Below, piece after piece: positions 1 to 49,663 of a stretch of DNA of 64,000 nt (positions within the stretch are counted from its first letter, which is position 1; each line of letters starts with the position of its first letter). The DNA lies in NCBI GenBank assembly GCA_000004985.1, contig GG738845.1. One strand, written 5' to 3'. A model generated the notes under the pieces. The model was not told the DNA's origin. It did no database searches and was given only the letters and a program-made list of their open reading frames with translations. The stretch is from Naegleria gruberi. Lineage: Eukaryota. The position numbers and the translations under genes were made by a program.

Positions 1-1468
1 CACAGAATTTTTCTACACCCTCAACACTTGAAAAATATTTTGCTGTCAGAATCAGATTACCATCATAAAGAGGATTACGAATATCCTTCTCGAGAGGAGT
101 TTCTCCCAATTGAGAAACTCTTAAATCTTCAAGAGAATATGACTTTTCTCTTAAGTACTCCTTAACAGCGATATATGTATCACATACTAATCTACCAGCA
201 AGAGACTCTTTTTCAGATTTGGTAGACTCATTCATACCTCCTGGCAATGGTTGAAGCATAGGATATCGACTTAATCTCAATCTGCCAACACGAGACCACA
301 AAACTCCATCTGTTCCCTTAAGAGCTTTCCAACGTTGCAATATAATATCAAGTTCAAAACTAAGGAAGCTGTGTCCAATATACATATCTGGGTCGTACTG
401 TTGAATTTGAGCCATCAAACGATTAATGAGGGATGTTTCATTAAATTCTAGTTCTATTCCATTAGAGTCAACTGAATTGTCATCAACTTTTCTGGCAACA
501 ATGAACTTCTTTCGTTGACTTTGCTGACCGGTAAAAGAATACTCTTGAAGTATGCAACAAACAGCAACTATTTCGTTAACTTTCTTTTCTTCGTTGTGGA
601 TAGTTTTAACTTTCAATGACATTAAAACCAATGGAGGTGGTGATCTATCATCATTGATAACAGAAATATTTGTTGGTTCATCTGTACTAACTTCAAATTT
701 ACACCAACTCAATTGACCGGATGATTTGACATGGAATTTTTGAATAGAAAGCCATGAAGGTCCCATCAACTTTCTTTTCAAAATAAATTCTTCCAATCCA
801 CTAGTAGTTGCGTGGAAAACCTTGCTGAATAACTTAGAACCTCTAAACTCTTGTAAATGTGGTTTTAAATTCTTAACATCAAATATAACAACTTTAACCA
901 TGGTAATGCTCTTGTTGTATGGTACATCAGCATCCTCAAATATGTATTTTCTTTCCTTGAATTTAAAACCAAATTTCTCTGGTGAAATTTTCAATACTTC
1001 AGATAATTCTTCTTGTATTCTTGATTCTTGTTCTTGATTGACAAGTTTTGCCTCTATTGGCTCACGAGGAAGAAAATAGATAGTTTTTTGTACTTTTTCA
1101 AGTCTGACACAGCAACTGGCGTAATTATTTGGAAGGGTTTCGATTTTACCAAACAAAATAATTCTACCATCAAGTTCACAAGAATCAACAAAATAAAAAT
1201 CCAGTTTGCTCTTTCCTTCTAAAGAAAATCCCACTGTCTGATTCTTGATGAATTGGTCCTGTTGTTCGATGAAGGGAATTTTGCTTTTAAAATCATCAGG
1301 AAGTATTGAAATTTCTTTCACATCACCCGATTTTGTACTACTAAATAATTTATGTCTCTTTTGTTGAGGGGAGGCTGATATTTCATCCTCATCGCTCATG
1401 GCAGAGGTGTTTACATCAAAATCTTCCTCTTGCTCACTGTCACTTTCTTCGTGTGAACGTCTTTTCAT
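1..1468 (-). CDS. POLA1: DNA polymerase alpha catalytic subunit, N-terminal ~490 aa including the exonuclease-like region; the gene continues past the left edge of the window
   Basis: A continuous minus-strand reading frame begins at the ATG around 1466-1468 with MKRRSHEESDSEQEEDF. It contains GHSFLSFELDIILQRWKALKGTDGVLWSRVGRLRLSRYPML...GRLVCDTYIAVKEYLREKSYSLEDL, which aligns with the human POLA1 region [40 protein letters not shown]...[25 protein letters not shown]. The + strand track ORFs 822..1222 lie antisense inside this frame and are spurious. Confidence 0.8.
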   Translation of the reverse strand, partial: MKRRSHEESDSEQEEDFDVNTSAMSDEDEISASPQQKRHKLFSSTKSGDVKEISILPDDFKSKIPFIEQQDQFIKNQTVGFSLEGKSKLDFYFVDSCELDGRIILFGKIETLPNNYASCCVRLEKVQKTIYFLPREPIEAKLVNQEQESRIQEELSEVLKISPEKFGFKFKERKYIFEDADVPYNKSITMVKVVIFDVKNLKPHLQEFRGSKLFSKVFHATTSGLEEFILKRKLMGPSWLSIQKFHVKSSGQLSWCKFEVSTDEPTNISVINDDRSPPPLVLMSLKVKTIHNEEKKVNEIVAVCCILQEYSFTGQQSQRKKFIVARKVDDNSVDSNGIELEFNETSLINRLMAQIQQYDPDMYIGHSFLSFELDIILQRWKALKGTDGVLWSRVGRLRLSRYPMLQPLPGGMNESTKSEKESLAGRLVCDTYIAVKEYLREKSYSLEDLRVSQLGETPLEKDIRNPLYDGNLILTAKYFSSVEGVEKFC

Positions 1469-1489
1469 TTTTTTTAACTGATTCTTTTA

Positions 1490-1520
1490 AAAGTGTGGCG
1501 GGAAAAATGTGGCGCCAAGT
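1490..1520. promoter_or_regulatory. Pair of E2F-like binding motifs (GTGGCGGGAAAAA and TGGCGCCAAG) 25-55 bp upstream of the DNA polymerase alpha start codon
   Basis: The sequence aagtGTGGCGGGAAAAAtgTGGCGCCAAGttt matches the E2F/DP consensus TTTSSCGC, which is typically found at DNA-replication gene promoters. A near-identical TTTGGCGGGAAAAAA occurs at 21409-21426. Confidence 0.5.
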
Positions 1521-1675
1521 TTGTTGTAAAACAAAGCAGCACTTTAAAAGACTTTACACTAATTGGAAAATTGAATAATTATAAGCAAATTCTTTAAAAG
1601 TAAAATATGATATCTGATTCTTGTACGTTATCTTGAAGTTTTTAGAGCAATCTTAAGGCATTCTAACAGAAAAAA

Positions 1676-2758
1676 ATGGAAGATCAAGCCGAAACTTCAC
1701 TGCACTATTTTGAATTTCAATCTCCTCTAAATAACAATAACTCTTTGACATTTGTTGATATGACAAAAGATGTTGCTTTCAAAATTAAGTACGAAGGACA
1801 TAAATGTTTAAAAGTTAACAAACACTTTAGAAACAATGAGCTTTTTCAAAATAACTTCTTTGTCTTTAAGAATGAAGATTCCAACGATTCAAGCTCATTT
1901 CCGCAACAAGAATGTGAAGATTTTAATATCTTAGAACCATCAGCCAATCAACTTGAAGGAGTATCAAGTATTTGTACACAAAGACAGAAGCAAAAGTCTT
2001 TCGATGAATCGAAACCTTCTCAAGAGAAGCCTTGTTCGTTTACATTCATTAGTTCTTCCCCTCACAACAATTTTACTGCCAATTACAATACATCCTTTGA
2101 AAAGCAGGCCTCAAAGAAAAGAAAGCAACAGTCCTTCAAGAATCAAGTTGAAACCTCTCCAAAAAAAAGGAAGAAAAGAAGAAATAGTGTGCATGCTGCT
2201 TCTGATCATTCAACCAAAGATAATAGAAAAAGAAACAGAGCTGGAAGTTTGGACTCTTCTACTTTCTATTCAATTGACCAAATTAATTCTTGCACATTTC
2301 CAGAAGATGAAGCTAATTTAGATAGCTCATACACAGATTTGAGAGAAGATCATGGTTTAATTTATTCACTCCTATTTCCCACTCAGCAAGAAAATGTCAC
2401 AGAAGATCATTTCCTTCCAAACACTCCTTCAATTCAACAGAACGTCGATCTCAATTTTAATGAAATTGATGAATTATTGAATGACTTTTCCATGGTGTCA
2501 GAATTGACCCTGTCTTCTAATGAACAATCTCTTCATTCTATTGATAACAATCTCATTGAAGAAGCTACTGAACTCAAAATACTGAATTCAGACGAAGAAT
2601 TCTGTGGTGATACTCTTATTGATTTTCAGCACGGCGAGGAAATAATTGAATCCATCAACAATTTACCACCACTCTTCGATATTCAATCAGACTTAATTGA
2701 AGAGCACGATATTTCTGATCTAGATACTCTCTTTGCAAATATTGAAAATAGTTTATAA
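1676..2758 (+). CDS. Hypothetical acidic protein with a basic NLS-like stretch (SPKKRKKRRNS) and an acidic C-terminus; possible nuclear or transcription-associated protein
   Basis: 360-aa ORF starting at an ATG in an AAAAAATGG context. The composition is low-complexity Ser/Asn/Asp/Glu-rich and I do not recognise a family. Confidence 0.45.
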   Translation: MEDQAETSLHYFEFQSPLNNNNSLTFVDMTKDVAFKIKYEGHKCLKVNKHFRNNELFQNNFFVFKNEDSNDSSSFPQQECEDFNILEPSANQLEGVSSICTQRQKQKSFDESKPSQEKPCSFTFISSSPHNNFTANYNTSFEKQASKKRKQQSFKNQVETSPKKRKKRRNSVHAASDHSTKDNRKRNRAGSLDSSTFYSIDQINSCTFPEDEANLDSSYTDLREDHGLIYSLLFPTQQENVTEDHFLPNTPSIQQNVDLNFNEIDELLNDFSMVSELTLSSNEQSLHSIDNNLIEEATELKILNSDEEFCGDTLIDFQHGEEIIESINNLPPLFDIQSDLIEEHDISDLDTLFANIENSL

Positions 2759-3099: not shown

Positions 3100-3468
3100 T
3101 TAAATTTTGAAACTAACCTCTTCCAAACTTTGAATTTCATCTGCCAATTGTTCATCACCAACTAACTTATCATCATACGACTCACAACATTTGGCACATT
3201 TTTTCTGTTTTTTGGCACAAGCATCACAGATAACGTGATAGGCCAGTGTGATAGTTTTTTGTTGACAAACATTACATCTTCTTGGTTGTGTTAGTGGTTT
3301 ATACTTTCTGTAAGCTTTCTTCCATTCAATAATGTCGTGACATCTTTTACAAAGTCCAACATTCGGAGTAGAAAGAATTTTAGCAGTTAATTTAGAAGCC
3401 TTGTTGTGTTTGAAAGCATAATCGTTTTGGTGGCGAGGTTTTGGACCATCTCTTCTGATTTGTGTCAT
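3100..3468 (-). CDS. C9orf85-like (DUF2039) zinc-binding protein
   Basis: MTQIRRDGPKPRHQNDYAFKHNKASK...CKRCHDIIEWKKAYRKYKPLTQPRRCNVCQQKTITLAYHVICDACA matches the C9orf85 family pattern of a basic N-terminus followed by CxRC...EW+.KY.KYKPL..P.+C..C..K.....YH..C..C. I placed the start at the second Met; the track ORF begins at an upstream Met (3501). Confidence 0.6.
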   Translation of the reverse strand: MTQIRRDGPKPRHQNDYAFKHNKASKLTAKILSTPNVGLCKRCHDIIEWKKAYRKYKPLTQPRRCNVCQQKTITLAYHVICDACAKKQKKCAKCCESYDDKLVGDEQLADEIQSLEEVSFKI

Positions 3469-4797: not shown

Positions 4798-5095
4798 TTA
4801 CTTTAGAAACAGTGTTACAAAATGCAAAGGATTATTTAGATCTCTCCAATCAGAATTTACAAAATTAAAAGTGGAAACAAGACAGTGACTGGTTTTAAGG
4901 ACTGTTGAATATTCAATCCAAATTGGGATTGATTTGAAAGCAGAACCGCCACCTCCTTTTGCTTCAGGTTCCTTGTTGAACAATTTCACTATATCAACAT
5001 TTGTACTTGTAATAGAAANNNNNNNNNNNNNNNNNNNNNNNNNNNNNNNNNNNNNNNNNNNNNNNNNNAATTGTTTTAAAATCCGACTTTGTCAT
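4798..5095 (-). CDS. Possible Tctex-1 family dynein light chain, interrupted by the assembly gap at 5019-5068
   Basis: The minus-strand frame ...IVKLFNKEPEAKGGGGSAFKSIPIWIEYSTVLKTSHCLVSTFNFVNSDWRDLNNPLHFVTLFLK* resembles the DYNLT C-terminal pattern (G.G...W..D.....W.N...C.V..F). A candidate ATG (MTKSDFKTI) lies on the other side of the N-run. The model is tentative. Confidence 0.3.
5019..5068. other. Assembly gap (50 N)
   Basis: Run of N characters. Confidence 1.
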
Positions 5096-12230: not shown

Positions 12231-12427
12231 TTTTTTTTAATCAAAATTTTAGTTGATGTTTTTTTTCAATTAATTAAAAATATGAATCATCAAGTAAATA
12301 AATTAAATATTCTAAAAACCTGTTTTTCGTTTCCAAAATACAACTTGCAAGTGAAATACTAATACAAACTATTAAATATAAAATTAAATTGAAAACACGT
12401 AGTGATTCAATACAAATTGGTTAATAA

Positions 12428-12448
12428 TTTGTGCGCCCGCCAATATGT
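12428..12448. promoter_or_regulatory. E2F-like motif GTGCGCCCGCCAA (reverse complement TTGGCGGGCGC) about 55 bp upstream of the ATG at 12499
   Basis: Matches the TTGGCGGG core shared with the sites at 1494 and 21409. Confidence 0.35.
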
Positions 12449-12498: not shown

Positions 12499-14760
12499 AT
12501 GGCTGCAGTGATTCCGTTAAGATCCGGTTATGAATTCCTCCAAGATACATCATCAAAATTGGTGGACGAAGGAATGACCAAAGTAGTTGTTGCCATGTTG
12601 ATGAATCACATCTTACCACAACTCTATGTTAGTCAATTATCCAAATTCGAAACATTTTCTGTTCCTTCACCTCTTTCTATTGAGGGAGAAGAGAACAATG
12701 ATCACTTTTTACTATTTGAAAAAGAAGCATCAACAAGTGGCAACAATTGCTCCAAGTGCCGTTATTTTGAAAACCTTGCCTTTTCTTCTTCATTCAACAA
12801 GTATTGCCAAGTAAATTGTACAAATTGCGACTGTTGTAATAACTCCAAAGAATTAACTCTTGATTCTCCTACAAACAATTACAACTTTGATTCTTATCAT
12901 CAACCCATCATGGTTCTTCCAACCTCAAATAATAATCATTCAAGCAATGAAACAAATACTGGTAATTCTCAATATGTTAGAGATTACCTTCTCAACTCAT
13001 TATTTCAATCAGATTTGCATACTGGCAACTCTCTTTCCAACATGCAACAACAAACTCAAAATGACAAGAACTATTTCCTTTCGAATGAAGGTTCCACTAT
13101 TCAAGAACCAAAAAATATGGTTTTTCCAGATATAAATAGAAAAAACCAAAACGAAAAAAAATCAATGACAATACTACCACAAACAACCCAAACTTTATAT
13201 CAAAACTCATTCATAGAAACTATTAATAATACTCACTCAAGTGAAGAGGAAGATGCATCATCCAGTAGCTGTTTGAGCAATTCTTCTGCCTTTTCGAATC
13301 AATCTTTTAATGTTAAACGAGAGAGTTTCATCTCAAATGAAAGGTCATGGAAGGTTGCTTTTGAATCGGAGGAGTATAAAGGATTATTAAGAAATACATC
13401 ATTCAAAATCAAGACAAGAACTGACGATATTGAAGTAAACATTTCCTCTCAACTGTACTCCAGTTTAAAGTATCAGTTTAACATTTCAACATTTATTAAT
13501 AAGAAAAGAGCCACCGAATTGGCAATTAATCAAAAAAGTTATGGAGGTATCATAATAGCCACAGTAGAATCGCTTATTGTTAAAAATGAAGAGGATGACG
13601 ATACAGACGAAGAAACTTTGAAGAAGGACGAAATATGCCAAGATGTTTTGAAAGGTGAGTCAGAATTAGCACTACAACCTATAGAATCAATAGAAGCTAC
13701 TGAATCAAAAGCTTTCAAACCATTCCTTCAACAATTAAGAAGAGAAATAAGTAAAGAGGACAATGATTGTGATGAAAGGGAATGGATATGCCTATTAAAT
13801 AAGACTAAGATGCAATTTTCTGATCAATCACAACACAATAAGAAAAATTCCTACGTTATGAGAGTTAGTTTTTATCTCAACAAGGAATTTAAGGAAAGAA
13901 AACCAATAATTATTTTCGATAGTGCTCCTTTCAAAATATATGCAAGAAGAAGCAAGAAATTGGACGAATCAGAAGAACCTAGAAAGAGAAAGAGGAAAAT
14001 CAAAAGCAAAACAACCTCAAAGAAACAAAAAAGTAATGATATTTCTCTTTTATCAAAATTTGAATCGGAATTGGGAGAATTGGTTCAATTCATTGGTGAA
14101 ATGACAAATTCAACTGAAAGAAATAGAGCAGTACAAGCTTTTATCACCAATCTAGTTTCACTAGAAAGTATCCAAGATAGAGCAGAGCCCATAGCCCCAA
14201 TACATATAGATACATCTTTTGGAAGGCAACCAGGAACTGCAGCAAAACTATTGAATGAGAGGATTCCAGAACTGAATCCTTATCCATTTTTTGATAGTAC
14301 TTTCTATGGAAATTATTCAAATAGAGAAGAAAATTCATTAGAATCATCAATATCCAAGGATATGCTGCTTTCTATTGGTCAATCTAGTGTTCTAGATAGC
14401 CCACATACACCTGATCTAATGAAAGGAAGTGAATCAAAACCACATCAAAATCACCCTCCAAGAATTTTACAATTATTGAACCAACCAAGTAGTAGACTAG
14501 ATTTAAGTAAGGTGAAAAATATTGGTTCAATGAATCCTTCAATGCTAAATAAGTATTTGCAAGATGATGTACAAACTCCAACATTAATGAACTCACAACA
14601 ATCCAATAACTTGATCGGAATGGAAAATAGTTTAGATATATTTGATGTAAGCCCTTTACCTATTCAAGGAAATATCAGTAATAGTTTACCAAACGAAACA
14701 AATGCATTCGATCAGTTACTATTCGATATTCACAGAACCCAACCCAAGAAAGAGAAATAA
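12499..14760 (+). CDS. Ser/Asn-rich nuclear-type protein (753 aa) with an N-terminal Cys cluster and a basic KRKRK NLS
   Basis: ATG start in an AAAAGATGG context. Contains CSKCRYF...CQVNCTNCDCC and RRSKKLDESEEPRKRKRKIKSKTTSKKQK. Confidence 0.45.
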   Translation: MAAVIPLRSGYEFLQDTSSKLVDEGMTKVVVAMLMNHILPQLYVSQLSKFETFSVPSPLSIEGEENNDHFLLFEKEASTSGNNCSKCRYFENLAFSSSFNKYCQVNCTNCDCCNNSKELTLDSPTNNYNFDSYHQPIMVLPTSNNNHSSNETNTGNSQYVRDYLLNSLFQSDLHTGNSLSNMQQQTQNDKNYFLSNEGSTIQEPKNMVFPDINRKNQNEKKSMTILPQTTQTLYQNSFIETINNTHSSEEEDASSSSCLSNSSAFSNQSFNVKRESFISNERSWKVAFESEEYKGLLRNTSFKIKTRTDDIEVNISSQLYSSLKYQFNISTFINKKRATELAINQKSYGGIIIATVESLIVKNEEDDDTDEETLKKDEICQDVLKGESELALQPIESIEATESKAFKPFLQQLRREISKEDNDCDEREWICLLNKTKMQFSDQSQHNKKNSYVMRVSFYLNKEFKERKPIIIFDSAPFKIYARRSKKLDESEEPRKRKRKIKSKTTSKKQKSNDISLLSKFESELGELVQFIGEMTNSTERNRAVQAFITNLVSLESIQDRAEPIAPIHIDTSFGRQPGTAAKLLNERIPELNPYPFFDSTFYGNYSNREENSLESSISKDMLLSIGQSSVLDSPHTPDLMKGSESKPHQNHPPRILQLLNQPSSRLDLSKVKNIGSMNPSMLNKYLQDDVQTPTLMNSQQSNNLIGMENSLDIFDVSPLPIQGNISNSLPNETNAFDQLLFDIHRTQPKKEK

Positions 14761-15257: not shown

Positions 15258-15668
15258 ATGTTTAAAATTGTGGATGGTAGACTTTTGGTGGACATTAAAT
15301 TATATTCGGAACATATTATTCAAGATTTAATATTATATTTTTCGTATGAGAGAATTTTAATCGGATTTATTCTGTTATTTATTTCATATTATATTATCAA
15401 AAAGATTGTAAAGAGAAGAACACTTGTTGGCAAATGTTGGAATTGTGGAGAAACATTTTATTTAACAAAAAGACAAGTGAATTTGGGATGGAAATGTCCA
15501 ACGAGGAATTGTCACTCTTTTAATAGTGGTCCTTCTTCTAATTCACAATCCTTANNNNNNNNNNNNNNNNNNNNNNNNNNNNNNNNNNNNNNNNNNNNNN
15601 NNNNTTTCTATTTATTCCTTCTTTTTGATGAACTTGTTACATATTATACTATTATTGATTGGTGGTGA
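15258..15668 (+). CDS. Hypothetical protein with a zinc-ribbon-like CWNCG...CPTRNC, broken by the assembly gap 15545-15604
   Basis: The ORF spans an N-run and the model is unreliable. Confidence 0.25.
   Translation: MFKIVDGRLLVDIKLYSEHIIQDLILYFSYERILIGFILLFISYYIIKKIVKRRTLVGKCWNCGETFYLTKRQVNLGWKCPTRNCHSFNSGPSSNSQSLXXXXXXXXXXXXXXXXXFYLFLLFDELVTYYTIIDWW
15545..15604. other. Assembly gap (60 N)
   Basis: Run of N characters. Confidence 1.
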
Positions 15669-19891: not shown

Positions 19892-21376
19892 TTATTCTTC
19901 ATCGTTATCTTGTGGTTCGTCCTTCTTTGGAGGGATAAACTTTTTCATGTCTTCTATTGTTGGATCTAATTGTTGGCATAATTTCACTTCTTCATATTCG
20001 TTCAATATTGGAAGTAAGAACTGTGGAGAGAATGCGCCACCCTTATAACCGTAACCAATGTAAACATTGGAAAATACCATATCTTTCGAGTTCCTCTTGT
20101 AACCAACCGTAAAGGCACCATTCCATAATCTATTTGAAAGACAAATAACCTCATTATCAAGACTTTGATGTGATGATCTTATTGTCCAATTTTCTTTTGA
20201 AATTGAGGATAATGGTTTAGGTATTCTTTCAACTGTTTTCTTCAATTGATCAAAGTCTGGGTTTTCTTTTTCCTCAGAAGTCCAGAAGAATGAACATCTT
20301 CCTTGTTTTCTTAGTATCGGTGGAAGAAGGTTAACCCAACTGTTATGTTTAGAAATATCTAGCTTTGCCAATTGCTCTTCAAATTCAGTATTTTGTTCAA
20401 TAGCAGCAAGGGTTTCATTTGCAATAGTTAAATTAGGTGGAAGATTCAATTCTGGATCTACCTCGTCTTCATCTGCGCTAAGCTTCATTCTTCCCAATGG
20501 AGCTAGGATGCAAGAGTGAGAGATTCTTGCAATCTGACATCTCAATAGTTCCATTTCTGTGCCTTTGAATGGAGGGTGTGACAAAACTTGTTGGTCCAAT
20601 CTTCCAGTAAAAAACTTTTTGATTTTTCTGCTTCTGTTAATGCTCTCTGGGTTTGAATCTGGAAGTCTTGTCCAAGTATCAGCATTTCCGCCAACATTAT
20701 TTGATACATAGTAAATGTATTTGTTTGTTCCATCAGTTTCGGGTGGAATTCCATTTTCCTTTTTTTCATTTTCATCATTGTCTTGTTCTGGTTCATCAGT
20801 CTTCTTAGTTTGTTCTGTCTCTAGTATGTAATAATTTTTCTCTATTCCCAGTATTTTGCCAAAGAAACGAATGGAATCTATGTCATTGTTTGATGAAACA
20901 ACTGATTTCATTGAAACCAATAACCGGATGAGTTCCATTTCTCCAATTCCAATACCTACATCCCTGAATAATTTTCCTTCATAGAGAATATCAGACATTT
21001 TGAGTGTATCCAATCCTTCCTCCCCTTCTTCTGTGTTGTCTACATCTTCATCTGTTTTTTTCTTTGGCTTTATTGGTGGATTTATAAGGGCAAGGTATTG
21101 TTCGGATCTCTTGAAATCCTTTTCCAAAATATTTTCATCATCTACTCCCATCCATGGTTTGTACAGTTTTGTTAAACGTTCAAAGGCTGATCTTTCCTTT
21201 GCAGGAACGAAGCTTCCTTCCTTTACTAAATTACAAAATTGTTCAATTTTAGAGAATGGATTTTTAGGCTTTTCTTGAAGTAATCTGAAAATTACTTCTG
21301 AAAAGAAATCCTCAATCGTAATTTTTTCCTTTTCCTCACCAAGATCCGTACATTTAACCTTTGATACAAAAGACAT
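19892..21376 (-). CDS. Radial spoke head protein 4/6-like (RSPH4A/RSPH6A family)
   Basis: 494-aa ORF with an ATG start. LYEGKLFRDVGIGIGEMELIRLLVSMKSV resembles the conserved RSP4/6 segment (LYEG.L..G.G.G.GE.E..R..L.LK), with an acidic N-terminus and an FWTSEE..NPDF region. The assignment is from memory of the family, not a database search. Confidence 0.55.
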   Translation of the reverse strand: MSFVSKVKCTDLGEEKEKITIEDFFSEVIFRLLQEKPKNPFSKIEQFCNLVKEGSFVPAKERSAFERLTKLYKPWMGVDDENILEKDFKRSEQYLALINPPIKPKKKTDEDVDNTEEGEEGLDTLKMSDILYEGKLFRDVGIGIGEMELIRLLVSMKSVVSSNNDIDSIRFFGKILGIEKNYYILETEQTKKTDEPEQDNDENEKKENGIPPETDGTNKYIYYVSNNVGGNADTWTRLPDSNPESINRSRKIKKFFTGRLDQQVLSHPPFKGTEMELLRCQIARISHSCILAPLGRMKLSADEDEVDPELNLPPNLTIANETLAAIEQNTEFEEQLAKLDISKHNSWVNLLPPILRKQGRCSFFWTSEEKENPDFDQLKKTVERIPKPLSSISKENWTIRSSHQSLDNEVICLSNRLWNGAFTVGYKRNSKDMVFSNVYIGYGYKGGAFSPQFLLPILNEYEEVKLCQQLDPTIEDMKKFIPPKKDEPQDNDEE

Positions 21377-21404
21377 TTTTTTTGTTGTTTACTGATGAAT
21401 ATGT

Positions 21405-21450
21405 ACAATTTTGGCGGGAAAAAATCGTTTATCCAATTACCGCCAAATCT
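21405..21450. promoter_or_regulatory. E2F-like motifs TTTGGCGGGAAAAAA (21409-21426) and ATTTGGCGG (minus strand, 21440-21448) inside a 116-bp divergent promoter
   Basis: The sites lie between the ATG at 21376 (minus-strand gene) and the ATG at 21493 (plus-strand gene) and are identical in core to the site upstream of DNA polymerase alpha. Confidence 0.45.
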
Positions 21451-21492: not shown

Positions 21493-23909
21493 ATGGACGT
21501 ACTCAAGGAAAAGCAATTCATGATAACCTCGGAAAGGTGGCAATTATTGGAGAAGGAAAGATTGGAGATGTAAGTGTAATCAATTAATGTAATACTTATT
21601 ATTCAGACTAAGGAAGAGAGAATTAATTGAACACAGGATTGATTTACGATATCACTCAGAGGAAGGATTGGAGCAACATAGATCTGATTATTATAAGAGA
21701 CTTTTGAAAAAGGTGGAAGACAATTTGGAAAAGAGTAAAATTAGGAACAAACTTTTGGTGAACAAAGCAGATGATCTTCTACAAAGCGTCTCAGTATCAA
21801 ACTCAAACAACCTTGTAAAGTCAAAAGTCAAGTTAGAGGTTGCAAAGGTAAGGAATAATTTCTCAAATTTCTTACACTCAAAAGAAACAATTTTTACAAT
21901 CCTTCCAGGACAGAGTAAAGGAATATGAGGAATTGGGGAGACACCAAAAACTCAAACAAATCAGAAAGACAGAAGAGGAAATTGAAATTGAGAGAAGGAA
22001 ATTGAGGGAGTCTACATTGGAATGGGAAAGAGAAAAGAAAGTTAATAATGATCTTCAAGAAAAAATTAAAGAGCTCATTGTAACAAAAGAAATATCAAAA
22101 AAAGAGGCTATTGAGAGGGAGGCAGAAAGAAAGGCTATTCTTGAAGGAGAGAGAAAAATCCAAAGAGCTGTTGAACAAACATCCGTTGATGCGTCAAAAA
22201 GATATTTGGAGAAAGAAGAAAAGAGGAAATTAGAAGCTGTTGACGGTAAAGATATTAAATACAAAGGTAAGAAGAAACTGGAAACATCTTTAATTTTAAC
22301 AACCTTAACAGGTCTTGTCGAAGAAGTGTACGAAGGAAAAATTGGAATTGCTGCTAGAGAAAAATTTGTGTCTCAAGAATCGTTTGAAATACAATCTCAA
22401 CAAGTTCAAAAACCTGTTGATGAATTATACTATAATGACGGATATAGCAGCTTTGAAGAAAAGCATAATCCAAACAGTTTTGCAAAATTTAAAGAATGGC
22501 AGAAAAAACAAACTGTTGACAAGAAGAAACCCGAAATGTCTCAAACACAAAAGCCAAAACATCAAACCCAGCAACAAACCCCAATTACTCAACCAATGAG
22601 GGAAAATTGTGTTGAAAAAAATTATAGACAGGAAGAGTTCAAAGAAATTAAGCCAGCACGAGAAGATTACAAAGAAATTAAGCACGAGGTCAGGGAGGAG
22701 GAAATAAAACCAACTCCTGTGTCCCAGACGACAAAGGACGTGCTTGGAGATAGCATTGGATCAATTGAAGATAGGGAATCTGAGAGTGATGACATCACCA
22801 AATCATTCTTGGAATCTATCAAAAAACCAATGTTGGTTTCAGCTTTGAGTAAGAAGGATGACAAGACTTCTCCCATCTCATCAATGATAAAACCATCAAG
22901 CCCAAAGAACATAGTTATCACTCCAGAAGAAACAAAGAATAATAACTTTGTTAAAATTCAGTCTCCTAAATCCTTTACAAGTACTTCACCACAACAAAAT
23001 AGAACAAACCAAACCTTTGCAAACCAACAAGCAACCTCAATCTCCCCAACAAAATCTACACCCCCTCCAAATCCTGTTATTGAAAAAAAGAAGGAAATTG
23101 AAACTAAAAAAGATCCAGAAAAAGATCCAGTAGAACACAAGGAAGGTGATTCAAAAACGAAAAAGATCAAAAGTTTCTTTTCTGCAGCATTCAAATTTAA
23201 TGGGAAGAAGAAGGAAGAAGAAAAATCAGAGGAGACTGAATCATCCTCTGAAAATGATTCAAATGCACAAGACAAAGAAGGAGACAATATGGTCCAACAA
23301 AGAGTCAAAAAGTTAAACCAATCAAAACTGGTTACAACTCTGTCTTCTTACATGCTAGAGTTAGAAAATCACCTTAAAGAACAAAAAGAAAGGTACAACA
23401 AAATGTCCTTAAACTACAAGCTGGAAAATAAGGAGAGTCAAGAAACGTTGGTATACTCAAACTGCCCAAAGATAAATGGGAAAAATAGAGTACTGAATAT
23501 TGAATCATCCAAGAAAGAAATTGAGCCAGTCATGAAGTGCGTGGCTTGTTTAGATATAATACAGTATCTCCCATCACCATTAATAAGTGTTGAAATATTG
23601 GATGAATATTTAGAAAAAGACACTGAGTATGAAATTGAACAACTTTCGAAGTATTTGAATTCATTTGGCTTAGAAGTTTGGCGATTAATAATAACACATG
23701 TTTCCAACTTGTCAAAGTTGGAACCCAAGTGGAGAGAGCCCTTACTGAAAGTGTTTTCTGAATCAATTTGCAAAACCCTTCCACCAAGTAAGAACACAAC
23801 TGAAGCTAAAAACAAAACAAAGACCCTGCTGAAAACTTATATTTCAACCAAAAAATCCAACACTACTATTCCTGACACAACAACACTCGAACAACCAAAA
23901 AAGAAGTAA
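21493..23909 (+). CDS. Coiled-coil protein, about 770 aa. Three exons: 21493..21569, 21607..21847 and 21909..23909
   Basis: The track ORFs 21668..21928 and 21933..23909 both start at TTG and join in frame across a 61-nt GTAAGG...TTCCAG intron. An upstream exon MDVLKEKQFMITSERWQLLEKERLE joins through a 37-nt GTAAGT...TTCAG intron. The N-terminus has heptad repeats, the middle is Ser/Pro/Lys-rich, and there is a structured C-terminal domain. Confidence 0.6.
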
Positions 23910-34082: not shown

Positions 34083-34119
34083 ATAGCTAAATCAAGCAAT
34101 CAAATAAAATTTATATCTN

Positions 34120-34179
34120 NNNNNNNNNNNNNNNNNNNNNNNNNNNNNNNNNNNNNNNNNNNNNNNNNNNNNNNNNNNN
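34120..34179. other. Assembly gap (60 N)
   Basis: Run of N characters. Confidence 1.
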
Positions 34180-36620: not shown

Positions 36621-36705
36621 AACTATATAAATATAATATAATGAATTCCTTGTAAAGAGTTTGTAATATTTAATTAATCATCAAAATAAATATTGCAATA
36701 AAAAA

Positions 36706-42234: not shown

Positions 42235-44130
42235 ATGTTCCACCAAAGAATGTTTTTTTCTCTAACAATATATTGTAAAGATATGTTTATTGGTATTTTT
42301 ATTGCCTTAGAGAGCAAATCCAACAAGATTTACCAACACAATTTAATCTTGATTTCAAGAGAGAATGAGATGATTCATGCACCCTTGCTGCTAATAATAA
42401 AAAATTATTTAGAAAAAATGAAATTAACACAAATCAACTATCAAGAGGACGAAATAACAAAGGATTATTTGATTGGAGATTCTTGTCTAATCAATAATTT
42501 CGAATTAAAAGATACTAGGAATGATGAAATGAAGAGTTTAGAATTTATTTCCGATAACAATTCATCAATTTGTTTGTATGGTTTCCTTCAAAAACATCCA
42601 AGAAATACAACAAATTCTTTCTTCGTTAAGATTTTACATTTAAAACAGTGGAATTTTAGTGAAAGTGGAGATATTATTGTACAATCATCAAGATATTGGT
42701 ACAAATTATTGAATCCATCCCCTGAATATGCTCCAACATTTGATTTGTTCGAGCAAAGACATAATCTATGGAGAGAATTAAAACCTATTTTGATGAGTTG
42801 GACGAGCGATTTATCTAGATGTGAGGAAGAAGATGAATTGAGCATGATTAAAAACAACATTACTATTGAAAAAGTTTTGCAAAAATTACCGAACACAAAT
42901 GAAGATTATCTATTAGACCATGCCCAATTTTTATATGATCAAATACTTCAAGATACCTCATCCTTTTCCATTCATGGATCTGATGTGAATCAAATGATGA
43001 ACACTCCATTACTATTCTCATTAAAAGAGAACCGATTCAAAAAGAAAGAAAATCAAATGATCAAAATTACAAAAGAAACTGCCTTGATGGATGGTATAGA
43101 GCTATCAGATTCTGACTCATATGACGAAAAGGATTTTGGTACCACATCTGAAGATGAAAGTGAGGATACTAATAGTGAGCCCACACAAAGTAAATCAAAA
43201 AGAAGAAAATATAAAAAGAGAGAAACTCCTAATAAGAAGAAAAAAACCAATCATGAAGAAAAGGGTAAAAGACAAAAGAAGGCTATGAAACAAGTATACA
43301 CAACAGCACACAAAATGGAAGAAGGAATACCTTCACGAAATTATTTTTTAGAAAAAGAATTTTCACCTCAACTCCTTTCTGAGTTGAGTGTGAAATATGA
43401 ACCTGGAATATGTCATTCTGGTAAGTTGATTGATTTTACATTCCTTAATAACTTGAATTTCTAAGTATGCTTCCAATGCAAAAAGAGAAGAATAGCTTGC
43501 TATAAAGAAAGGCCTGCATGTTCCAATTGTCTGAAAGAAGGTCTTCAATGTACATACCCAGAACTTATGAGGCTTTCACGTATGTTTCTTATTTTGTAAT
43601 TAAATATTTAATATATTTACCTCCCAATAATAGCATGTGTTCCATGTGGAGAACGCGGTGGTAAAGTATGCAATAGAGAAAAACCAACCTGTGATATCTG
43701 TATAGAACGTAAGTATGATATTTTAATTTGGCATTTTAACATTTTGATATCAGGAAAAACCAATTGTTACTATTTTAGCTCTGATACTTTTCTCATTCTT
43801 GCAGAAAAGAATATTAATTCAGCAAAGGAACAAAACGAAGAAACCATTGAAAAGAAAACTAATATCACCACATGGAACGATGAAGCTTATTCTGAAATTT
43901 TAAAGGAAATGAATGAAAAGATTAACAAATATTCCAATGTTAAAGAAACAGAAATCTCAAAAATCCTTGAAAAAACAACCACTCAACAAAAGGTAACAAC
44001 AATGGAAGATCTTGAAGATTTGGAAGAACAAGTGGTAAGATGGAAAGCAAAAGCTGAAAAGGAAAAGAAAAAAAGGATTGGAATCAAAGAAAAATTAGAA
44101 CAATATATTGAAAAACTTGATGAACAATAG
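42235..44130 (+). CDS. Fungal-type Zn(II)2Cys6 binuclear-cluster protein with two tandem Cys6 motifs near the C-terminus. Four exons (about 42235..43420, 43466..43579, 43634..43707, 43754..44130). An apparent 1-nt frameshift falls inside exon 3, so this is either a sequencing error or a pseudogene
   Basis: In frame after the track stop at 43462-43464: CFQCKKRRIACYKERPACSNCLKEGLQC (C-X2-C-X6-C-X6-C-X2-C-X6-C). A GTAAGT donor at about 43421 removes the stop. After a 54-nt GTATGT intron a second cluster reads CVPCGERGGKVCNRE, then a frame change in an A4 run, then PTCDICIER...C. The last exon is track ORF 43744..44130, which starts at TTG. Confidence 0.5.
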
Positions 44131-46510: not shown

Positions 46511-46850
46511 GTTGACTTTTTTTTTCGAACAAATTTTTAAAGTTGAGTCGTTCTTTTTCGCTTTTTACAATAATTTTTTTTATTCCAACAACAAACCTCG
46601 GTAAACAATTTGAACTTGCCGCCTTCAACAGAACAATTTTAATGAAAAACCAATCTTGTATTCTTATAATTAATAGGAAGATAAACATTATTCCTTTCTC
46701 TTTTCTGTTTTAAAAAGATTCATGATGACTCTACTACTTTTCATCGTAGCCATAACTAATAAAAATTTCATCTTTCAATCTCTACTGACATTTTATTAAA
46801 AAAAAGACTTTTGCACCTACCTGCCATCCTTCATCAGTGTACATTCAAAT

Positions 46851-49545: not shown

Positions 49546-49663
49546 GTTAACAATAGCTTGATTTGATGCGATGGTAGTGTGGATGTTTTTTTAATTTTTT
49601 GAATTTAAAAATAGGATTCTGTATTACAATAAAATTCTAATAATAAAAATTGCTTGACAAAAT

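Follow-up and report, generated by a model that had tools for sequence, protein, structure and literature searches.

E2F-type sites upstream of DNA polymerase alpha and of flagellar genes in Naegleria gruberi and other protists

Paired E2F sites near the gene start are found in animal G1/S promoters, including those of human POLA1, Drosophila DNApol-alpha, DHFR and p107. Plants have an E2F/RBR regulon with E2F sites in the PCNA, RNR, MCM and CDC6 promoters, and Chlamydomonas has a MAT3/RB–E2F1–DP1 pathway; these systems indicate that the logic of E2F at replication genes is older than animals. RB/E2F occupancy of DNApol-alpha genes has been reported in Drosophila (PMC3484676), and E2F, DP and RB have been inferred in the last eukaryotic common ancestor (Medina et al. 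2016, PMC4862756). In animal multiciliated cells, E2F4/5–DP1 acts with Multicilin/GEMC1 (reviewed in PMC12183034), so that the E2F family there drives a centriole and cilium programme outside S phase.

We analysed a 64,000-nucleotide stretch of protist DNA (the window) in which the gene for the DNA polymerase alpha catalytic subunit (POLA1) is preceded by two E2F-type sites. The locus has in common with animal G1/S promoters its target gene, its consensus (TTTSSCGC or TTCCCGCC) and the pairing of its sites near the gene start, and the source organism, like animals, has an E2F, a DP, an E2F7/8-type protein and an RB. It differs in belonging to a discoban protist with one E2F and one DP, and in its 207-bp promoter. 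Two window ORFs, a P5A-ATPase of 1199 aa and a radial spoke protein (RSP4/6), match Naegleria gruberi proteins at 100% identity, the first an NCBI entry and the second the predicted protein P0273; the source is therefore N. gruberi (Discoba, Heterolobosea). A preliminary description had used the E2F-type sites to argue for a protist or other non-Dikarya affiliation. That affiliation was right, and the E2F argument for it is superfluous, as protein identity decides the matter directly.

The features at the start of the window are as follows.

2..1468, minus strand: N-terminal 489 codons of POLA1, running off the window start; the A of the ATG is at 1468
1469..1675, no strand: divergent intergenic region of 207 bp shared by POLA1 and ORF360 (gap between the ORFs)
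1497..1505, minus strand: proximal E2F-type site TTTCCCGCC, -29 to -37 from the POLA1 ATG
1510..1519, minus strand: distal E2F-type site CTTGGCGCCA with a palindromic GGCGCC core, -42 to -51 from the POLA1 ATG
1676..2758, plus strand: orphan ORF360 (360 aa), divergent neighbour of POLA1

The minus-strand ORF matched Pfam DNA_pol_B_exo1 (1.2e-34) and, among PDB entries, polymerase alpha (6.7e-51) far better than polymerase delta (8e-4), which confirmed the gene assignment of the preliminary description. As presented, the flagged sequence is GTGGCGGGAAAAA at 1495-1507 followed by TGGCGCCAAG at 1510-1519. Sites were matched to the consensus TTTSSCGC or to its variants TTCCCGCC and TTTGGCGCCAAA; PMC3333892 defines TTTSSCGC as the classic motif and TTCCCGCC as that of E2F7. 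The proximal TTTCCCGCC is a full match to TTTSSCGC and also matches the E2F7 ChIP motif, and the distal site, cTTGGCGCCa on the POLA1 strand, matches the 7-mer core TTSSCGS in addition to its palindromic core. The tandem sites of the preliminary description are real, apart from a one-base shift, and occupy the proximal promoter of a G1/S (DNA replication) gene, 29-51 bp upstream of its ATG. The intergenic region contains three CpGs, two of them inside the sites. ORF360, for which Pfam and PDB searches found no match, is probably not their target. The same gap also holds CTTTTAAAAG (1484-1493) and two copies of CTTTAAAAG (1542-1550 and 1592-1600), a repeat whose 5 occurrences window-wide, against 2.5 expected, are not significant.

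An orthologous promoter was available from a metagenomic relative of Naegleria. An exhaustive representative search identified P0124 as a POLA1 orthologue, 70% identical over all 489 residues from Met1 and encoded on a 7.2-kb ENA metagenome contig (L003), with its true ATG at 2920; a word-indexed homologue search with the POLA1 fragment had returned no Naegleria relative. The L003 promoter carries a distal site, TTGGCGCCCAAA, at -45 to -56 within AACTTGGCGCCCAAA, and a second site, CCGCCAAA, with a CCGCC core at -31 to -38, so that the pair spans 31-56 bp before the ATG as against 29-51 bp in N. gruberi. A textbook TTTTGGCGCGAAAT lies roughly 210 bp upstream of the same ATG. All five TTSSCGS matches of the contig fall within the 324-bp gap upstream of POLA1, a count that none of 200 shuffles reached. 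When the two promoters were aligned, the only extended conserved blocks were AACTTGGCGCC, identical in both species, and the A-run before the ATG; the remainder was largely unalignable, with a few scattered short matches, and the spacing and orientation of the proximal site differed. These data amount to a phylogenetic footprint, on one orthologue, and they uphold the E2F-type reading of the pair: the consensus fits, and type and position are kept. On the upstream side, L003 has an RGS-domain gene where N. gruberi has ORF360. Because L003 keeps the sites beside an unrelated neighbour, they belong to POLA1 and not to the adjoining gene. Further POLA1 promoters were sought by other routes. A 40%-identical POLA1 (P0132, on L008) from an unrelated, intron-rich genome was uninformative, its 5' end being uncertain; two scans of JGI metagenomes turned up no POLA1 relative; and synteny from the P5A-ATPase gene was too patchy to reach POLA1 in N. 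fowleri or Willaertia.

The preliminary description proposed looking for E2F and DP homologues. Medina et al. 2016 (PMC4862756) list in their source data an E2F, a DP, a DEL (E2F7/8-type) and an RB of N. gruberi, and we examined these proteins against Pfam and PDB. NgruE2F matched E2F_TDP (1.3e-28) and E2F_CC-MB (7.8e-32), NgruDP matched DP (2.7e-31) and E2F_TDP (1.8e-18), NgruDEL has two E2F_TDP stretches, and NgruRB matched RB_A (6e-45) and RB_B (2e-24); the E2F_TDP, DP, RB_A and RB_B matches were all above cutoff. The DNA-binding domain of NgruE2F, which is most similar to E2F4/5, matched that of human E2F4 in the E2F4–DP2–DNA crystal structure (1CF7) at 7e-25, and a 27-residue block that includes RRIYD is identical between them. 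Since the two domains are near-identical, NgruE2F would be expected to have the same DNA specificity. N. gruberi therefore possesses a cognate E2F and DP with the RRxYD DNA-contact motif together with an RB pocket protein.

The sites, their conserved type and position, the promoter-proximal enrichment of the motif described below and the cognate proteins with a conserved DNA-reading motif are all directly observed. We think it probable that the two motifs are functional binding sites for Naegleria E2F-family proteins in the POLA1 core promoter. The sites would be bound by the one E2F of the organism together with DP, and possibly by the DEL/E2F7-8-type protein, which has two domains. E2F–DP would sit on the sites 30-50 bp before the ATG, near the start of what would be a very short 5' UTR. 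Outside S phase, the RB pocket protein would hold E2F–DP inactive; RB release at G1/S would then let E2F–DP activate POLA1, with later repression possibly coming from the DEL-type factor. This mechanism is taken from animals and plants, and it is from them that we infer binding, RB dependence and cell-cycle periodicity in Naegleria. The POLA1 promoter has the textbook RB–E2F arrangement, and it extends the cis-element evidence to Discoba, which fits an RB–E2F network dating to the last eukaryotic common ancestor.

The preliminary description had also noted the same core at 21409 and 12433, as part of a putative cell-cycle regulon. Both recurrences exist, but neither lies at a replication gene: the first is upstream of a flagellar radial-spoke gene and the second upstream of an orphan gene. 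The features around 21409 are as follows.

19892..21376, minus strand: homologue of radial spoke head protein 4/6 (RSP4/6) of the flagellar axoneme, Pfam Radial_spoke 3.3e-82
21409..21424, no strand: near-palindromic E2F-type site TTTTGGCGGGAAAAAA, reverse strand TTTTTTCCCGCCAAAA
21440..21447, minus strand: second site TTTGGCGG, 64-71 bp from the RSP4/6 ATG
21493..23909, plus strand: coiled-coil orphan gene (772 aa), divergent from RSP4/6, with two introns

The first site has its core, TTTCCCGCCAAAA, 33-45 bp ahead of the RSP4/6 start codon, whose A is at 21376. Measured from the divergent coiled-coil gene, whose ATG is at 21493, the TTTGGCGG site is 46-53 bp away. Pfam and PDB searches with the coiled-coil gene gave nothing usable; its introns, 21570-21606 (37 nt) and 21848-21908 (61 nt), are very short and of the form GTAAG...CAG.

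An E2F-type site was present 22-73 bp upstream of RSP4/6 in all seven protists examined. The six besides N. gruberi are listed here, with positions given as the start of the TTSSCGS core before the RSP4/6 ATG.

N. fowleri: AACCCGCCAAAAA, -72 (L005 7927-7939), the only match in 17.5 kb
Naegleria relative: TTTTTGGCGCCGG, -53 (L006 5390-5402)
Willaertia: TGCCGCCAAAAT, -33 (L007 7966-7977)
GCA_016850925.1: AAAAGGCGCCAACG, -28 (L009 790-803), the only match in 4.7 kb
JGI metagenome organism L010: TTTTTGGCGCCTAAA, -59 (L010 1512-1526)
JGI metagenome organism L013: TCTTGGCGCCATTTTG, -57 (L013 9635-9650)

Start codons were checked by N-terminal homology. Against N. gruberi RSP4/6, the proteins of L009, L010 and L013 show 29-36% identity, with BLASTP and alignment giving different values, and the upstream neighbours of the gene differ among species. 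By conservative shuffles of each organism's own 110-bp RSP4/6 upstream region, the joint chance probability of the sites in these six non-discovery organisms is approximately 6e-10. A further axonemal gene bears the motif in Willaertia: the orthologue of AK7 (adenylate kinase 7; L007 1-3032, minus strand; PDB AK7 1e-84, with a Dpy-30 motif) has TTTGGCGCC 55 bp upstream of its ATG (L007 3085-3096). We considered whether the RSP4/6 site might be an RFX X-box and rejected this, as the GTTGCC-N(0-3)-GGCAAC inverted repeat is absent and in all seven organisms the sequence at the site is SCGCCAAA or TTGGCGCC.

With sites at RSP4/6 and AK7, the targets of the motif are not only replication genes. This pattern, which rests on two genes, suggests that in these protists flagellar genes, too, may be under E2F-family control. 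Naegleria reportedly lacks RFX and FOXJ1 (PMC12183034), and the same review describes the transcription factors of cilia genes as unidentified in Naegleria, Chlamydomonas and Tetrahymena, giving as the cause the absence of RFX, FOXJ1 and, in Naegleria, XAP5. Among the papers that could be searched, none connected E2F motifs with promoters of Naegleria or with flagellar genes of protists. We tentatively raise the possibility, which we would not yet favour, that E2F–DP or a DEL/E2F7-8-type protein directly controls axonemal genes in flagellates that lack RFX and FOXJ1, Naegleria included. If so, the RSP4/6 and AK7 sites would mark the missing cilia-gene transcription factor of these flagellates, and an ancestral coupling of flagellum building to the cell cycle would later have been echoed by E2F4/5–Multicilin in animal multiciliated cells, whose E2F-driven programme has a parallel in the motif at RSP4/6 and AK7. 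The parallel is partial: animal E2F4/5 targets are mainly centriole-biogenesis and FOXJ1/RFX genes, and animal radial-spoke genes are RFX/FOXJ1 targets, whereas the Naegleria link to E2F comes from cis-element conservation only. The RSP4/6 site is nevertheless a concrete and cheaply testable candidate for a cilia-gene regulator, and we regard it as the lead most worth following.

TTSSCGS occurs 13 times across the window, where 5.45 occurrences are expected; of 100 dinucleotide shuffles, one reached 13. Seven of the 13 lie outside long ORFs, in 15% of the sequence, clustered in four short intergenic regions, and six lie inside ORFs; the exact 10-mer TGGCGGGAAA occurs in the window only at the two promoter sites. 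The remaining intergenic features are these.

12433..12444, minus strand: E2F-type site ATTGGCGGGCGC (as presented, GCGCCCGCCAAT), 55-66 bp upstream of ORF 12499-14760
12499..14760, plus strand: orphan ORF753 (753 aa), downstream of the 12433 site
46616..46623, plus strand: weak variant TTGCCGCC, roughly 106-113 bp before the gene for ribosomal protein uS5

Pfam and PDB searches with ORF753 gave nothing usable, and TTGCCGCC may lie upstream of the uS5 gene by chance.

The motif was then followed in a pooled set of approximately 163 kb, made up of the window and loci from N. fowleri, Willaertia magna and the metagenomic Naegleria relative. Noncoding DNA of this set held 17 separate site clusters where 3.75 ± 1.9 were expected (maximum 9 in 300 shuffles), and coding DNA held 14 against 17.6 expected. 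For 58 upstream regions, each 120 bp long, an unbiased k-mer test ranked only E2F sub-words at the top, GGCGCC and TGGCGGG among them, and TTGGCG was present in 13 promoters against 1.7 expected; these figures are somewhat inflated, as 6 of the 58 promoters had been picked as belonging to motif-bearing genes or their orthologues. Sites mostly fall 27-112 bp before an ATG; for three, the closest ATG is over 200 bp away. No intergenic site was present in two control loci, of 44 kb and about 19 genes taken together, which surround the P5A-ATPase gene in N. fowleri and in Willaertia, so the element marks a minority of promoters.

Among the replication and chromatin genes seen, the only other one with a site was Willaertia SSRP1/POB3 (FACT), with TTTTTTGGCGCCATT 29-35 bp upstream of the ATG (L007 12640-12655); the RecQ helicase promoter of N. 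fowleri had no site. In L010, TTCCCGCCAA (3359-3368) stands 40-48 bp upstream of a 378-aa gene whose product has a faint but full-length match to CDT1_C (E 0.38), from which it may be a licensing-factor gene. A Willaertia WDR26-like LisH-WD40 gene has CCCGCCAAAAG at about -60 (L007 5286-5297), and its N. gruberi counterpart (window 49546-49663) has no such site, so not every occurrence is conserved. Because the motif is found at a flagellar gene, an orphan gene and the WDR26-like gene, it is not specific to S phase, and the predicted target set of the E2F family is wider than replication genes.

This breadth bears on an alternative, in which the motif is a general promoter-proximal element of heteroloboseans, bound by an E2F-family or other factor and acting constitutively, for example by keeping promoters free of nucleosomes or CpGs unmethylated, and not as a G1/S switch. 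It would account for about 10% of unselected promoters carrying the motif, for the E2F word being the top enriched one in promoters generally, for the mixed functions of the genes concerned (orphan ORF753, the WDR26-like gene, a MAPK/AK7 pair, the RGS gene) and for the sites holding most CpGs of a CpG-depleted genome. Against it, some 85-90% of promoters, including those of the housekeeping genes P5A-ATPase, Fcf1, COQ7 and HYOU1, have no copy of the motif, and its presence at POLA1 and RSP4/6 is gene-specific and kept across species while neighbours change. We therefore consider this alternative unlikely.

Less probable still is that a non-E2F factor, such as an Sp/KLF-like GC-box protein or a novel heterolobosean factor, binds sites that merely look like those of E2F. 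The consensus of 19 oriented sites was tTTTGGCGS(C/G)a. A CCCGCC/GGCGGG subset does overlap the core of a GC box, but 11 of the 19 read TTGGCGC or TTCGCGC, with GGCGC or CGCGC cores and no GGCGGG, and what the sites have in common is an SSCGS core with a 5' T-run, the form known for E2F from SELEX and ChIP. The near-identity of the N. gruberi E2F DNA-binding domain to that of E2F4 also argues against such a factor. The Sp/KLF GC box itself (GGGCGG/GGGGCGGGG core) was rejected, with GGGCGG in none of the 19 sites. That the POLA1 pair represents chance GC-rich words in an AT-rich intergenic region, or serves ORF360, is highly improbable, for although the region is shared with ORF360 and TTSSCGS also occurs inside ORFs, two sites fall in a 207-bp gap where 0.02 are expected at the window TTSSCGS rate, and the recurrence of the pair in L003 beside an unrelated RGS gene effectively refutes this reading. 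Binding by the E2F family thus remains our preferred explanation for the POLA1 sites.

The window as a whole is AT-rich (approximately 32% GC) and gene-dense. Its CpG observed/expected ratio of 0.39 is a strong depletion and suggests cytosine methylation. In the short promoters, many of the CpGs present fall inside E2F-type sites.

Assembly gaps (runs of N) occupy window positions 5019-5068, 15555-15604 and 34119-34179. The ORF at 42235-43464 has a weak match to the DNMT1 replication-foci domain (E 8.6e-5), just at the Pfam cutoff. Runs of A (AAAAAAATG) precede true start codons, for example at 1469-1476, 12231-12238, 21377-21384 and 36698-36705, and the A-run before the ATG helped us to separate real starts from those proposed by the ORF finder.
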